Made by a program: the position numbers and the translations under genes
DNA from: an uncultured Lactobacillus sp.
GTDB lineage: Bacteria > Bacillota > Bacilli > Lactobacillales > Lactobacillaceae
DNA: 64,000 nucleotides
Reading direction: 5' to 3'
Assembly (NCBI RefSeq): GCF_947367085.1
Contig: NZ_CANBCP010000005.1
Coordinates: 118 to 64,117 of the forward strand
Shown here: in pieces, positions 27,204 to 42,981 of the stretch
Numbering within the stretch: position 1 is the stretch's first letter
How the letters are laid out: each line of letters starts with the position of its first letter
The notes under the pieces: generated by a model
The model's input: only the letters and a program-made list of their open reading frames with translations
The model's database searches: none
Told to the model about the DNA's origin: nothing

Positions 27204-27226
27204 CTAAACTAAAATTTTAGTTTAGT
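27204..27226. promoter_or_regulatory. Perfect 22-bp palindrome CTAAACTAAAA/TTTTAGTTTAG between divergent tkt and lacI genes
   Basis: Read directly; half-site recurs at other island promoters. Confidence 0.6.
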
Positions 27227-27254
27227 ACTAGTTTATTAACAGATGGTGATTTCA

Positions 27255-28277
27255 ATGATAAAGATGGAAGACATAGCGCGTTTAGCTGGAGTATCAAGAT
27301 CAGCAGTTTCTTTGACAATTAACGATAAACCAGGTGTAGGACCCAAAACACGAGAAAAAATATTTAAAGTAATTGAAGAAAATGATTATCAGCCCTTGAG
27401 AAAAAGACATAAAGGAAAATCTCACTATTTGGCATCAGTAACGTTTTTGATTATTACCAATCATCAGGGGATGGTGAAAAGCAATTATCGTTCGTTGCCG
27501 TTTTTTGATAATTTGATTTCTGCTTTATCTAAAAATATCTCTGCTTATGGAGGTACTACACAAGTTCAAAATATTGAATCAAGCAGAATTAAAAAAGATA
27601 TACCTGCCCTTGTTAAAGAAGGGGTGTTAAAGAATACTGTTGTTTTAGCAACAGATCTTTCCAGACAGCAAGTTCAGTTCATAAAAGATGAATTGAAAAC
27701 TGTTGTTTTTGTGGACACATATTATGATGATGTATCGGCAGACTTTGTAACTATGGATAATTTCCAGGGTGCTTATAATGCTGCTGAATATATTTTGAAT
27801 AAAGGCTATAAAAATATCGGTTATGTTGCATCTGATCGCAATATAAGTAACTTTCAGAATCGAAGAAGGGGATTTTATCAAGCTATGAAATTACATAAAC
27901 GTGAAATCTTGCCTGAACATTTTTATAGCATCTCGCCTTTAATGAAGGGTGCTGATGAAAATGAAATTATTGATATGCTTCAAAAAAGTAAGTCTTTACC
28001 AGATGCGTTGTTTTGTGAAGATGATTATATTGCTGTTCGCTTGATTAAGGAACTGTCAAATTTAAATATTAAAGTTCCTGATAGAGTTGCTATTATGGGA
28101 TTTGATGATATTTATGTAGGCCAGATGATATCTCCGGAATTAACGACAGTTCATGTTCCAATTCATCAAATTGTTAATCAAGTTCTTTTTCAATTGCAAG
28201 AACAACGTGGAATGGAGCATTGGCAGCCACAAAAATGTTTAGTAGCGACTAGGATCGTTGAAAGACAATCCTTATAA
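27255..28277 (+). CDS. LacI-family transcriptional regulator (atypical hinge); alternative start 27243
   Basis: MEDIARLAGVSRSAVS HTH; GFDD..PELTTV C-terminus. Confidence 0.88.
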   Translation: MIKMEDIARLAGVSRSAVSLTINDKPGVGPKTREKIFKVIEENDYQPLRKRHKGKSHYLASVTFLIITNHQGMVKSNYRSLPFFDNLISALSKNISAYGGTTQVQNIESSRIKKDIPALVKEGVLKNTVVLATDLSRQQVQFIKDELKTVVFVDTYYDDVSADFVTMDNFQGAYNAAEYILNKGYKNIGYVASDRNISNFQNRRRGFYQAMKLHKREILPEHFYSISPLMKGADENEIIDMLQKSKSLPDALFCEDDYIAVRLIKELSNLNIKVPDRVAIMGFDDIYVGQMISPELTTVHVPIHQIVNQVLFQLQEQRGMEHWQPQKCLVATRIVERQSL

Positions 28278-28283
28278 AAAAAC

Positions 28284-28364
28284 TTAGTTGAGCTTAATTT
28301 AGTAAATTTAATGACTAATTTAATGACTTTTATGTTATTTTGATTCATGTGGAAAGCGATTACA
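28284..28364 (+). promoter_or_regulatory. Island repeat motif (28284-28303) and cre-like site (28351-28364) upstream of isomerase operon
   Basis: Reverse complement ACTAAATTAA-GCTCAACTAA; GGAAAGCGATTACA. Confidence 0.5.
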
Positions 28365-28386
28365 TATTTTCGTTTAAAGGAGATAC

Positions 28387-29844
28387 ATGATGACAAATAA
28401 AAATAGCTTGAAACAAATAAAGCTTGGTTTTGCACCAACTAGAAGAAATATCTTTTCAGCGACTGCCGCAATTGAATTTGCAGATAAAACACGTAAAAAG
28501 TTAGATGAATTAGGTGTTAACTACGTTGATATTAAAGATGTAAATGATGATGGACTCCTGTATGATGATTCAGGATTAGAAAAGATTACTGAAAAATTTA
28601 AAGCTGAAAAGATTGACGGTTTATTTATTGCAAATGAAAACTTTGGGACAGAATACGAAGTTGCCCGTTTAGCAGCTAAATTAAATGTTCCTGTTTTACT
28701 TTGGGGACCAAGAGATGAAGCGCCAGCTCCAGACGGATCAAGACGTCGCGATACGCAATGTGGCTTGTTTGCTATTGGTAAGGTTCTACGTCACTTTAAT
28801 GTACCTTTTACTTATATAAAAAATAGCGATATTGATGATCCATCATTTAGTCGTGGAGTAATTGACTTTATTAAAGTATGTAATGTAGTCAAAACCTTCA
28901 AAAATACTAGAATATTGCAAATTGGACCACGTCCATTCGACTTTTGGTCAGTTATCGTTAATGAAGGTGAGCTATTAGAAAAATTTGGCATTCAACTTTC
29001 TCCAATTCCATTAGGAGAAGTGACATCCTATATGAATGAGTTGATCAAGAAAAATGATCCTAGAATTGAAGATACAAAAGAGACCTTCAGAAAATGGGCT
29101 GATATAAAAATTAAAGACGAAGACTTTACTAAAGTTGCTGCATTAAAATTAGCAATGCAAGATAAAATGAAAGAGTACGGTTGTAATTGTGCAACTATTC
29201 AATGCTGGACAGAATTACAACGTGAGATTGGAATTTTGCCATATGCTTCTGAAGCTTTACTTCAAACGGAAGGAATGCCAGTAACTTGTGAAACGGACAT
29301 TAATGGTGCTATTTCTGAAGTGTTAGCAGAAGCTGCAACTCTAGGTGATGAACGTGCTTTATTTGCAGATGTAAATTGTCGTCACCCAGAAAATGAAAAT
29401 GGCGAATTGTTGCAACACTTAGGAACATTTGCATTTCAAACTGCTAAGAATCGTCCAGTCTTACCACCATCTCATTTTGTATTTGATTACCCAGGTTCAG
29501 CAGCTTTCCAAGTTAAAGATGGTACATATACTTTAGTTAGATTTGATGGCGATCACGGTAAGTACTCAATGTTAATCGGAAATGCTAAAACTTGTGAAGG
29601 ACCTTATGAACAAGGTACTTATGCTTGGTTCCAATTCAAAGATTTAAACAGATTTGAAGCAAAATATGTTTATGGACCATATATCCACCATATGGCTGGA
29701 GTTCGCGCAGATGTTGTTCCAATTTTGGCAGAAGCTTGCAAGTATATTAATGTTAATGCAGATTACTACGATCCTATTAAGGAAAAGGTCGCAGCATATT
29801 GGTATGGTGATTTGGATACTATTTTGGATTCTGATCAAAGATAG
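28387..29844 (+). CDS. L-fucose/L-arabinose isomerase-family protein (candidate D-apiose isomerase)
   Basis: NFGTE, DTQCG, IQCW, PVTCETDING, RHP, HLG, YIHH motifs of FucI-like isomerases. Confidence 0.78.
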   Translation: MMTNKNSLKQIKLGFAPTRRNIFSATAAIEFADKTRKKLDELGVNYVDIKDVNDDGLLYDDSGLEKITEKFKAEKIDGLFIANENFGTEYEVARLAAKLNVPVLLWGPRDEAPAPDGSRRRDTQCGLFAIGKVLRHFNVPFTYIKNSDIDDPSFSRGVIDFIKVCNVVKTFKNTRILQIGPRPFDFWSVIVNEGELLEKFGIQLSPIPLGEVTSYMNELIKKNDPRIEDTKETFRKWADIKIKDEDFTKVAALKLAMQDKMKEYGCNCATIQCWTELQREIGILPYASEALLQTEGMPVTCETDINGAISEVLAEAATLGDERALFADVNCRHPENENGELLQHLGTFAFQTAKNRPVLPPSHFVFDYPGSAAFQVKDGTYTLVRFDGDHGKYSMLIGNAKTCEGPYEQGTYAWFQFKDLNRFEAKYVYGPYIHHMAGVRADVVPILAEACKYINVNADYYDPIKEKVAAYWYGDLDTILDSDQR

Positions 29845-41333: not shown

Positions 41334-41360
41334 ATTTGGTAAGGTTAGGAGAAGTTTATT

Positions 41361-42893
41361 ATGCAAACAGTTGAAAAATGGAAAAGATATGAATTGGTTT
41401 TAGCTGGACCACAAAATGGTAATCCATTTAGGGATGTCAATTTGACAGCTACATTTACTCATAACAATCATAGTGTTACGGTAGATGGCTTTTATGATGG
41501 TAATGGTATTTATAAAGTTTGCTATATGCCTGAATTGGAAGGGGAGTGGACAGTAACCACCCAATCTAATGTCGATGCTTTAGATAATAGGACTGATAAA
41601 TTCGTTGTTACATCTGCTAGTGAAAATAATCATGGCCCTGTCCGTGTATCAGGAAAAACCCACTTTGCTTATGCAGATGGAACAGGTTATATTCCTTTTG
41701 GTACTACAGCTTATGCTTGGACGGTGCAGCCTAAGGATGTTCAAAAACAGACTCTAGAGACGTTAAGCCAGAACAGATTTAATAAAATTAGGATGCTCGT
41801 TTTTCCCAAGAGTTATGATTACAACACTAAAGAACCGGATATTTATCCATTTGAAGGGGCTCCAAAAGTAAAACGCGGTGGGACAGATTGGATTTTTGAT
41901 GGAAGTGATACTGGCTTTGATTTTACTAGACCTGTACCTGAATATTTCCAGAATTTGGAAAAAAATATTGAAGAATTAGATAAGTTAGGAATTCAAGCAG
42001 ATTTAATTTTATTTAGTCCTTACGATCGTTGGGGCTTTGCTCGTATGGGTATGGAAAACAATTTACAATATTTGAAATATATTGTTGCCCGATTAGCCTC
42101 ATATAAAAACGTTTGGTGGGCTTTGGCCAATGAATATGATTTGATGGACTTGGTAGGACAAATCCCACTAAGAGATTGGGATAGAATTGGTCAATTTGTT
42201 CATGAAAAGGATCCTTCTCAACACCTTGAATCAATTCATAATTTCTATGATCCGCCACAACATAAAGATACTACGAAGAACTGGTATGACCATACTAAAC
42301 CATGGATTACTCATTTAAGTGTTCAATCCGATAATGTATTTTTAATACCAAAATGGATTGAAGAATATCAAAAACCTGTGGTAGATGATGAATGTCGCTA
42401 TGAAGGTAATATCGAATTTGGTTGGGGTGATAATTCTGCTCAAGGCATGATGGATAACTTCTGGCGTGTGATTTTACGTGGTGGCGGTTGTACTCATGGA
42501 GAAACTTATATCGATAAGCCTGATACCGACCGACCAATTTGGTGGGCTCATGGTGGAAAACTTTATGGTCAAAGTCAAAAGAAAATAAACTTCTTATATG
42601 ATTTACTTAAAAAGAACGGTTTTGACTGGGTAAAGCCACAAGCAACTAGTGGTCCAACTTGGGAATTAGCAGTAGGATCAACTCCAGATGAAAAGAAATG
42701 GTTGGTTTACTTTGGTGATAATCAACCTGAGTATGAATTATTTAGCTTTTTGCCTAAGGATAAAAAGTTTAGCGCTAAATTAATTAATGCTTGGGATGAA
42801 ACAGTTGAAGATTTTAATACTGAAATTTCAAATGATAAGAAATTCCACATTGCAAGAAAACCATACCAGGCTATGTTATTAACAGAAATGTAA
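41361..42893 (+). CDS. DUF5060-DUF4038-DUF5605 putative glycoside hydrolase
   Basis: VEKW..ELVL.GP..GNPF.DV N-terminus, HGPVRV..HFAYADGT, GTTAYAW, WWALANEYD, DDECRYEG, HGETY. Confidence 0.72.
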   Translation: MQTVEKWKRYELVLAGPQNGNPFRDVNLTATFTHNNHSVTVDGFYDGNGIYKVCYMPELEGEWTVTTQSNVDALDNRTDKFVVTSASENNHGPVRVSGKTHFAYADGTGYIPFGTTAYAWTVQPKDVQKQTLETLSQNRFNKIRMLVFPKSYDYNTKEPDIYPFEGAPKVKRGGTDWIFDGSDTGFDFTRPVPEYFQNLEKNIEELDKLGIQADLILFSPYDRWGFARMGMENNLQYLKYIVARLASYKNVWWALANEYDLMDLVGQIPLRDWDRIGQFVHEKDPSQHLESIHNFYDPPQHKDTTKNWYDHTKPWITHLSVQSDNVFLIPKWIEEYQKPVVDDECRYEGNIEFGWGDNSAQGMMDNFWRVILRGGGCTHGETYIDKPDTDRPIWWAHGGKLYGQSQKKINFLYDLLKKNGFDWVKPQATSGPTWELAVGSTPDEKKWLVYFGDNQPEYELFSFLPKDKKFSAKLINAWDETVEDFNTEISNDKKFHIARKPYQAMLLTEM

Positions 42894-42898
42894 GATGT

Positions 42899-42926
42899 AA
42901 AAAAGAGCATGTTAAATGCTCTTTTT
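42899..42926 (+). terminator. Terminator
   Basis: aaaaagagcat/atgctcttttt. Confidence 0.75.
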
Positions 42927-42939
42927 GTACTGTATTTGA

Positions 42940-42981
42940 ACTAAACTAACAAATCCACACTTTATAAAGAAATCGCTTTCA
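42940..42981 (+). promoter_or_regulatory. Island motif half-site (42940-42949) and cre-like site (42968-42981)
   Basis: ACTAAACTAA; AGAAATCGCTTTCA. Confidence 0.45.

Follow-up and report, generated by a model that had tools for sequence, protein, structure and literature searches.

A CG-Less ACTAAAC Repeat as Candidate Operator of a LacI-Family Regulator without the Hinge Motif in a Lactobacillus Plant-Glycoside Island

Introduction

Regulators of the LacI family predominantly recognize even palindromes: such operators were reported for 1251 of 1303 regulators, with a central CG for 1173 (Ravcheev et al. 2014, PMC4052901); "direct repeat" is not a term of the main text of that study, and its supplements contain no site sequences. 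Where the recognition Arg of a family member deviates, the operator loses its G, and members without the hinge Leu have operators without the central CG (Francke et al. 2008, PMC2329647). CytR of the Enterobacterales and Vibrionales has been described as a "highly flexible" family member (PMC3454398). Here we describe LacI#1, a LacI-family regulator in which other residues stand in place of both the recognition Arg and the hinge motif, together with a CG-less repeat with the core ACTAAA(C) at five promoters of a plant-glycoside island of a Lactobacillus. The whole stretch of DNA that was analyzed (the window, 64 kb) is contig C5 of a 2.0-Mb genome with 35% G+C, and the island occupies 23.9–44.5 kb of it according to Pfam and NCBIfam. 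As evidenced below by sequence comparison and structural modeling, the repeats are likely the operator of LacI#1, which would act as the local regulator of an island for apiose and apiosyl-glycosides and belong to a hinge-less clade found throughout the Firmicutes.

The ACTAAAC Repeat Is Concentrated at the Promoters of the Island

The preliminary description of this DNA had listed five sites built from the pattern RCTMAAYTAA, all of which are present in the window sequence (table 1). The pattern matches ten times in the window, each time within 27217–42949, compared with 3.45 ± 1.81 matches (maximum 8, none at 10) in dinucleotide shuffles of the window. Seven of the ten are intergenic; the other three lie in coding sequence (28675, 33494, and 42774), are compatible with a chance level, and went unmentioned in the preliminary description. 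As background we used the genome's own intergenic DNA (188.5 kb, 70% AT; 73% AT for the island intergenic DNA). The five island intergenic regions (682 bp) contain seven matches versus eight in the other 187,845 bp, giving a Poisson P of ~3e-15 for the island count, for a pattern defined post hoc on data already seen. Equal frequency in unrelated AT-rich intergenic DNA, which the preliminary description had named as the outcome speaking against a shared operator, was thus not found.

A k-mer test free of any preset pattern ranks ACTAAACTAA first among shared 10-mers, with four of the five island intergenic regions containing it, and any 10-mer is shared so widely in 2 of 2000 random five-region intergenic sets. 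When ACTAAACTAA, the word derived from the orthologs, is allowed at most one mismatch, 7 of its 46 genome-wide intergenic matches fall in the island. A genome-wide scan for clusters of at least three half-sites within 45 bp returned the auto-operator of the island and, as the only other intergenic region, C1:7703; no wider regulon beyond the island appears evident. Outside the window, three ACTAAA cores stand upstream of a GH43-like glycoside hydrolase gene (C53:8099–8260), a possible additional member of the LacI#1 regulon.

Both orientations of the half-site, direct and inverted, are present in the window. The arrays overlie the likely lacI#1 promoter, with TAAAAT at the palindrome's center, the lacI#2 -35 region, and the edge of the isomerase -35; at licT, the MFS gene, and bglA they lie 9–21 nt upstream of the -35, with a CG palindrome in the spacer alongside. 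Promoter elements are given here as consensus matches or as our reading of the alignments, and the gene calls in our scripts are simple open reading frame (ORF) calls.

Four of the Five Sites Are Conserved in Other Lactobacillus Species

Other Lactobacillus species have the island sites at corresponding positions, with the exception of the bglA site. Loci of the same synteny, whose regulators are 39–68% identical orthologs, carry TTAGTTTAGT-type words in both the tktN/regulator and the regulator/isomerase intergenic regions: L. colini (locus L002) retains the inverted pair ACTAAACTAA-aaaa-TTAGTTTAGT, its auto-operator reading ACTAAACTAAaaaaTTAGTTTAGT. The isomerase promoter block TTAGTTnAGCTTAATTTAGTAAAT is kept in six species, where it ends at the -35 region, and a separate catabolite-responsive element (cre), TGTAAGCGAATACA, follows the -10 and is conserved in the orthologs. 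In four species (the window, L. colini, L. johnsonii, and a Lactobacillus metagenome-assembled genome), the licT block stands ~20 nt upstream of the -35; TTAGTTTAGT-nTAGTTAAGnAATT is conserved in the lacI#2/mfs divergon of five Lactobacillus species, and at both licT and mfs the spacing is conserved as well.

No copy of ACTAAACTAA was found upstream of the GH1 orthologs (75–90% identical) of 12 relatives, and a cre-like site is recognizable in most of them; 8 of the 12 returned no LacI#1 homolog in our search, two of these eight assemblies being 57–74% complete. Because the genome holds only two other exact intergenic copies of ACTAAACTAA, a chance occurrence of the 10-mer in the 133-bp bglA intergenic region is improbable. 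The site at 42940 is nonetheless the weakest member of the proposed regulon, its membership being lineage-specific at best. The proposal that one LacI#1 regulon spans the island is supported by the sites conserved in position at the isomerase, licT, and lacI#2/mfs promoters, and is weakest for bglA, which the preliminary description had included.

The sites lie at transcription-unit junctions, two of the five directly after terminators, and the island looks mobile, its isomerase being 90–93% identical between species; these observations would fit a reading of the five intergenic regions as paralogous copies or recombination scars of island assembly, in which the word has no function. We regard this as hardly credible. 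The similarity of the five regions is limited to the motif and the CG palindrome, the orientation of the sites differs, the motif is kept while its flanks diverge in other species, and the same word stands beside regulators of 24–38% identity in other orders, which also speaks against a purely structural role of the DNA.

LacI#1 Lacks the Hinge Motif and the Recognition Arg

LacI#1 has the two domains of the family: an N-terminal helix-turn-helix (PF00356, E=3e-14, residues 7–51) and an effector domain (PF13377, Peripla_BP_3, E=1e-26; PF00532, Peripla_BP_1, E=2e-14), and it matches PurR and other LacI structures at ~1e-22. None of the NCBIfam models reaches its cutoff with LacI#1, and proteins of this type bear generic public names ("LacI family" or, by similarity, "ribose operon repressor"). 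The recognition helix reads SAVSLTIND in place of the TVSRVxN of the family, replacing the base-contacting Arg with Leu, and the linker reads YQPLRKRHKGKS where the hinge motif YxPNxxAxxL would stand; the sequence alignment confirms the hinge substitution (YQPLRKRHK) already seen in the preliminary description.

An AlphaFold model built on a 63-sequence alignment, with a mean predicted local distance difference test (pLDDT) of 90, places the helices of the DNA-binding domain at residues 8–15, 19–26, and 34–47 and shows no helix in residues 48–64 (pLDDT ~52). The control model of LacI#2, the second LacI-family regulator of the island, obtained by the same procedure and at the same alignment depth, has a fourth helix, the hinge, at 49–56. 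LacI#1 is therefore predicted to be without a hinge helix. As it combines the Arg and the hinge changes, the rule of Francke et al. (PMC2329647) leads one to expect both consequences in its sites, and the repeats show both.

The Repeat Is Codistributed with the LacI#1 Clade

Among 60 related genomes, 11 encode a LacI#1 ortholog or paralog (39–68% identity) with the same recognition and linker features. A scan of species-representative genomes gave 80 loci, with Lactobacillaceae members at 47–53% identity, ~33 Bacillales loci at 33–38% (including Cohnella, Paenibacillus, Neobacillus, Metabacillus, and Amphibacillus), and a Breznakia locus and many Clostridia at 24–31%, so that the clade spreads over Lactobacillales, Bacillales, Erysipelotrichales, and Clostridia. 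All its members have SAVSLALNGKPGVS and no hinge motif, and can be recognized by the signature SAVSLALNGK together with the missing YxPNxxAxxL; a few canonical LacI proteins ranking lowest in the scan retain the Arg-type helix and the hinge. The linker differs between groups (PLRKRKKGG in Lactobacillaceae, YIPRPIIKA in Bacillaceae), which agrees better with a tether than with a conserved element that reads the DNA. A LacI#1-type gene also occurs in Bifidobacterium colobi, 48% identical and beside MFS-DUF5060, which suggests horizontal transfer from the Lactobacillaceae.

The core ACTAAA(C) is found in the flanking intergenic DNA of ~60 homolog loci of four orders, at 9–24 times the density of other intergenic DNA; it should be noted that related genomes are not independent samples. 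In the 32 Bacillales loci, each of which holds at least two copies upstream of the regulator, ACTAAA reaches 16.7/kb in the regulator-upstream region, compared with 1.8/kb in the other intergenic DNA of the same loci and 0.48/kb in coding sequence, and the longer word ACTAAAC shows the same (6.8/kb vs. 0.28/kb). The corresponding densities are 6.2, 0.5, and 0.08/kb for the clostridial homologs, and 0.8, 1.1, and 0.20/kb for six loci of canonical-hinge LacI proteins. The comparison therefore supports the earlier proposal that the hinge-less LacI encoded at 27255 reads this CG-less repeat, as the core tracks the clade and the six canonical-hinge loci lack this enrichment.

The regulator-upstream region in Bacillales is packed with AACTAAAC, and the repeats sit in or over the -35 and -10 elements, filling the spacers between them, as would a repressor: in L027 they read TTGACAtAACTAAACtttatAACTAAACTAATATT, the Cohnella locus (L036) has five copies, and the Amphibacillus locus (L043) has ACTAAACTAAAATATTTAGTTTAGT, an inverted pair like that of the window auto-operator. 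With a flank consensus of A-ACTAAA-C/T-T, the conserved unit appears to be the half-site (A)ACTAAA(C/T) and not the 10-mer as such. Ten loci contain the 18-bp inverted repeat AACTAAA-N4-TTTAGTT with an AT-rich center, and N2 and N3 variants exist; direct repeats have N3 spacers in 8 cases and N5 spacers in 11 (a period of 9–11 bp). Over the ~60 loci, inverted spacers range from N0 to N14 (mode N4) and direct ones from N2 to N12 (modes N3 and N5), and the overlapping 5-bp phasing seen in ACTAAACTAA is apparent in the tally. An even palindrome with a central CG was not found as the LacI#1 operator; the ACTAAA half-sites have AT-rich centers or form direct repeats.

About 45 of the 80 loci from the scan have the regulator next to the iso-tktN-tktC genes or divergent from them, which makes it the apparent regulator of the pathway and at the same time confounds regulator and target. 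A minority of contexts separates the two: the core stands beside regulators with a DUF5060 or apiosidase-like gene alone (L042 and L046) and beside regulators without any island genes (L049 and L051), and ribokinase-like contexts in four Lactobacillus species carry ACTAAAATAA-N2-ACTAAAATA plus an inverted copy at the ribosome-binding site (RBS). The loci of MFS-DUF5060 orthologs (Paralactobacillus, Pediococcus, and Bifidobacterium colobi) have the core or the variant TATTCTAGTA, of which two to three tandem copies replace ACTAAAC in Pediococcus siamensis (L015, 5021–5214; its regulator, like that of B. colobi, is 48% identical) and B. colobi (L020, 5045–5169). Among the 60 relatives, the isomerase is encoded in seven genomes and DUF5060 in six, all of them with the regulator; for neither target was a genome found with the target and without the regulator, leaving the GH1 gene as the only such control. 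Taken together, the LacI#1 clade is probably the apiose-pathway regulator of the Firmicutes. We found no description of the clade or the motif in the literature covered, which leaves out most subscription journals and RegPrecise, where a curated regulog may exist for some members.

The genome encodes three EbgR-like regulators (LacR/GalR/RafR), which likewise miss the hinge Leu and whose binding sites are odd palindromes of the TTTAGTAAA type, and the repeats could be theirs. The published EbgR-like operators AAATTTAGTAAAATT share the TTTAGT core (PMC2329647), and the island site 28296–28308, AATTTAGTAAATT, is a perfect odd palindrome of this type. This is the only island site (28298) that TTTAsTAAA fits, the others being ACTAAAC after non-T bases; the EbgR-like regulators have TTTAsTAAA clusters of their own beside their own operons on other contigs, and ACTAAAC tracks the LacI#1 clade in the Bacillales and Clostridia loci. 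Binding of the repeats by the EbgR-like regulators is thus very improbable. The other 15 intergenic TTTAsTAAA sites of the genome lie outside the island, several by EbgR-like operons. TTTA(G/C)TAAA clusters were noted outside the window at C2:55213–55348, C7:39225, C31:5002–5238, and C51:12267; those on C2, C7, and C51 adjoin the operons of the three EbgR-like regulators, the C31 cluster has no regulator gene called, and the type is that of the published LacR/GalR operators.

Canonical Palindromes Stand at the Same Promoters

In the k-mer test, CGGTTACA ranks second among the words shared between the island intergenic regions and points to a feature missed in the preliminary description: canonical TGTAAnCGnTTACA-type palindromes occur at the same promoters, at 27144, 28351, 32157, 39971, 40051, and 42967. 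The ACTAAACTAA repeats hold no CG and do not match the cre consensus WTGNAANCGNWNNCW, whereas these separate neighboring palindromes do. Cre-like sites lie within 10–50 bp of every array, an observation of proximity only. TGTAAnnGCTTACA-type sites are conserved in orthologous intergenic regions, and CcpA is the presumable binder of the 27144 site. The licT palindrome TGTAATCGGTTACA, which differs in sequence between species as cre does, may serve as a cre, a LacI#2 site, or both. The invariant TGTAACCGGTTACA is a probable operator of LacI#2, a regulator with canonical recognition helix and hinge to whose gene the preliminary description had given no role. With a CG palindrome at every one of these promoters, the island would be under layered control and not run by a single operator.

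From first principles such palindromes are the default operator of any LacI protein, so that assigning the repeats to LacI#1 required an independent test. LacI#1 could bind the canonical TGTAAnCGnTTACA palindromes, leaving the ACTAAAC repeats as UP-element-like or curved AT-rich DNA or as the site of another factor: the palindromes occur at all five promoter regions and are conserved in orthologs, and the repeats show a 5- or 10-bp A-tract phasing and lie mostly upstream of the -35. This possibility was considered first and rejected as the preferred explanation, and we now judge it improbable. LacI#1 has neither the TG-reading Arg nor the hinge Leu/Ala that reads the central CG; the isomerase, tkt, and bglA palindromes vary like cre, and the cre-like site persists at most bglA orthologs in genomes without LacI#1; the invariant TGTAACCGGTTACA adjoins the canonical LacI#2 gene; and it is the specific ACTAAAC word, not A-tracts in general, that is kept from Lactobacillus to the Paenibacillaceae and Clostridia, always beside this clade.

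Table 1.—Features of the island and its candidate operators (positions in the window).
Feature	Position	Strand	Sequence	Remarks
Site at tktN/lacI#1	27204–27226		CTAAACTAAAATTTTAGTTTAGT	27204–27225 is a perfect 22-bp palindrome
Candidate auto-operator	27203–27236		tCTAAACTAAAATTTTAGTTTAGT then ACTAGTTTATT	Between divergent tktN and lacI#1; inverted ACTAAA/TTTAGT half-sites
Site at isomerase	28284–28303	minus	ACTAAATTAA-GCTCAACTAA	
Candidate operator block	28284–28310	minus	TTAGTTGAGC-TTAATTTAGT-AAATTTA	5' of isomerase gene; includes odd palindrome AATTTAGTAAATT
Site at licT	32115–32134	plus	ACTAAACTAA-GCTAAATTAA	Tandem; ends 21 nt upstream of the -35 of the licT-PTS-ydjC-rhamnosidase operon
Site at lacI#2/MFS	40012–40035	minus	GCTCAACTAT-G-ACTAAACTAAGCT	
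Candidate operator block	40012–40039	minus	AGCTTAGTTTAGTCATAGTTGAGCAATT	Between lacI#2 and MFS gene
Site at bglA	42940–42949	plus	ACTAAACTAA	Single copy; ends 11 nt upstream of the GH1 (bglA) promoter -35
Cre-like site	27144–27159		TGTAACCGCTTTTACA (TGTAACCGCTTTTA at 27144)	Downstream of conserved extended -10 of the tkt operon (minus strand)
Cre-like site	28351–28364		GGAAAGCGATTACA	Between promoter and start codon of isomerase
Canonical palindrome	32157–32170		TGTAATCGGTTACA	Over -35 and spacer of licT promoter
Second palindrome copy	39971–39984		TGTAATGGGTTACA	
Perfect palindrome	40051–40064		TGTAACCGGTTACA	In MFS promoter spacer; invariant in five species
Cre-like site	42967–42980		AGAAATCGCTTTCA	In GH1 promoter spacer; AGTAATCGCTTTCA or TGTAATCGATTTCA conserved in orthologs
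licT operon promoter	32156–32183		TTGTAA-16-TAGAAT	Consensus match
FGGY kinase, split transketolase (tktC, tktN)		minus		By Pfam/NCBIfam
LacI#1	27255–28277	plus		ORF start possibly 27243; orthologs fit 27255
Fucose-isomerase-like isomerase, apiosidase-like hydrolase (PF13204), esterase		plus		Follow lacI#1; divergent from tktN
LicT/BglG antiterminator, PTS EIIBCA, YdjC, GH78 rhamnosidase				After esterase; leader with RAT/terminator
LacI#2	38987–39946	minus		Canonical: ATVSRIIN, hinge YHPNQVARTL
MFS transporter, DUF5060/apiosidase-like hydrolase				Divergent from lacI#2
GH1 enzyme (bglA)				Last gene of the island

Further Observations on the Island

The genes of the island are listed in table 1 (PTS, phosphotransferase system; RAT, ribonucleic antiterminator). 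The isomerase (28387–29844), with the high identity across Lactobacillus species given above, adjoins a regulator (27255–28277) of merely 47–68%; either faster evolution of the regulator than of its target or horizontal exchange of island parts would account for this. A 12-bp tandem duplication (AATTTAATGACT, two copies, 28304–28327) lies 5' of the isomerase gene, with the operator block on one side and the cre-like site on the other; it is missing in the five orthologous intergenic regions and may have duplicated a -35-like ATGACT. The leader of licT contains a RAT-like GGATTGTTACATTAAGTTGGCAAGACC and a terminator (32195–32265) that are near-invariant across four species. A second RAT/terminator stands between the isomerase and apiosidase genes in other Lactobacillus (L014, 6572–6703; L093, 17090–17200, reverse strand); the window has none, the two genes being adjacent at 29844/29853. 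The mechanically called GH1 ORF begins with TTG at 42994; the RBS GAAGGGAG followed by ATG at 43027 better matches the N-termini of the orthologs (42994–43030).

Proposed Mode of Action

We infer the binding of LacI#1, its repressing action, its effector, and the assignment of the CG palindromes from sequence. Each helix-turn-helix would read one half-site (A)ACTAAA(C/T), a variant of the canonical TGTAAAC in which the change of TG to AC would go with that of the recognition Arg to Leu. Instead of inserting hinge helices into a central CpG, the two DNA-binding domains would hang on a proline- and basic-rich linker, which is modeled at low confidence and without secondary structure. Domains freed in this way could reach half-sites that are 2–4 bp further apart, one helical turn apart, or directly oriented; the missing hinge and the loose linker would thus explain why the half-sites occur as AT-centered N2–N4 inverted repeats, as direct repeats of 9–11 bp, and as 5-bp-phased runs such as ACTAA-ACTAA-GCTAA-ATTAA. 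An AT-hook-like role of the basic Lactobacillus linker is a speculation.

Repression with autoregulation is the most likely mode of action, favored by the arrays over the promoter elements of lacI#1, lacI#2, and the isomerase and in the Bacillales spacers; it would be relieved by an apiose-derived effector or pathway intermediate, for which apiose or apulose phosphate is our guess from gene context. This control would come on top of that through the CcpA/cre sites, present at each promoter, and through LacI#2 at TGTAACCGGTTACA.

Several observations weigh against this interpretation. The bglA site is not conserved. Pediococcus and B. colobi carry the variant TATTCTAGTA without an obvious change of the recognition helix, and no clear pattern of covariation between helix and variant was seen. 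Most loci carry the regulator together with the iso-tkt operon, so that regulator and target are partly confounded and come apart only in the minority contexts. The TTTAGT core is shared by the known operators (TTTAsTAAA) of EbgR-like LacI regulators, of which this genome encodes three. Finally, the licT, MFS, and bglA arrays lie upstream of the -35, a position that also suits an activator or anti-activator.

For these three promoters, blocking of upstream contacts, activation, or CytR-like cooperation with CcpA or LacI#2 would all be possible, and LacI#1 might bind the repeats there as an activator or as the CytR-like partner of a protein at the adjacent CG palindrome. Besides the array being always accompanied by a CG palindrome in the spacer, at a spacing kept at licT and mfs, CytR is known to act in this way with CRP (PMC3454398). 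Most local regulators of the LacI family are repressors, however, and the lacI#1, isomerase, lacI#2, and Bacillales sites overlap core promoter elements; we therefore hold such a role to be rather unlikely.

A more general model remains tentative, though we give it somewhat more weight: the loosely tethered domains of the hinge-less clade would read ACTAAAC half-sites in arrays that are direct, inverted, or phased by 5 bp; the regulator would at some promoters act jointly with the protein on a neighboring CG palindrome, CcpA or a second LacI; and the clade would represent both a Gram-positive counterpart of the CytR–CRP system and a dedicated switch of the apiose transketolase pathway.

The search for CG-centered palindromes that is usual for LacI operators would miss the sites of this clade, and in this island would assign LacI#1 to the neighboring cre-like sites. 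Of practical use are the half-site (A)ACTAAA(C/T) and the arrangements in which it recurs, the protein signatures of the clade (SAVSLALNGK and no YxPNxxAxxL), and, for Lactobacillus, Paenibacillaceae, Bacillaceae, and gut Clostridia, a predicted regulon of the recently described apiose transketolase pathway. The clade further provides a natural setting for testing the contribution of the hinge helix to constraints on spacing and orientation, and an apiose-responsive repressor/operator pair would be a candidate genetic tool for lactic acid bacteria.

Comparison with Known Systems

The enzymes of the gene clusters for the "transketolase route" of D-apiose were reportedly assigned by Carter and coworkers in 2018. 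The island resembles these clusters in its isomerase, FGGY kinase, and split transketolase and in its apiosidase-like hydrolases. The route is cited in PMC13753588, and the set of isomerase, kinase, and transketolase corresponds to it. No regulator or operator for the apiose transketolase route was found in the literature.

With the canonical LacI/GalR/CcpA repressors, LacI#1 shares the two-domain architecture (Pfam LacI and Peripla_BP), local sugar control with autoregulation as proposed here, and a half-site, ACTAAAC, that resembles TGTAAAC. These repressors bind CG-centered palindromes of 14–16 bp; LacI#1 differs from them in the predicted absence of a hinge helix, and its sites in the missing central CG, the direct repeats, and the wider spacing of half-sites. 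LacI#1 and its operator would thus form a LacI-family pair with a non-canonical architecture.

The EbgR-like LacR/GalR/RafR regulators are similar in having no hinge Leu/Ala and CG-less operators, with a TTTAGT(AAA) that overlaps the ACTAAA core (PMC2329647). In contrast to LacI#1, they retain the recognition Arg (TVSRVLN) and have extra residues inserted ahead of helix 3, and their operator is an odd palindrome of a fixed 17 nt centered on a single C/G. LacI#1 has Leu and no insertion (relative to LacI#2), its sites are even N2–N4 palindromes and direct repeats and do not form the 17-nt odd palindrome TTTA(G/C)TAAA, and it scores 72 bits with the NCBIfam EbgR model; the true EbgR-like paralogs of the genome show both the insertion and the recognition Arg, neither of which is found in LacI#1.

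CytR resembles LacI#1 in its short half-site repeats, inverted or direct and variably spaced, without a fixed CG-centered palindrome (PMC3454398), as read for LacI#1 from the DNA, and in having sites that adjoin those of the global catabolite regulator; a partnership of LacI#1 with CcpA is speculative. CytR is not an ortholog of LacI#1 (NCBIfam NF008269, 108.8 bits against a cutoff of 436): it has the usual sequence of the DNA-binding domain and needs CRP, whereas the recognition Arg and the hinge motif of LacI#1 are replaced, its half-site is ACTAAAC compared with GTTGCATT for CytR, and the organisms with LacI#1 are Firmicutes. CytR and the EbgR-like LacR/GalR group are the closest precedents of the LacI#1/operator pair.

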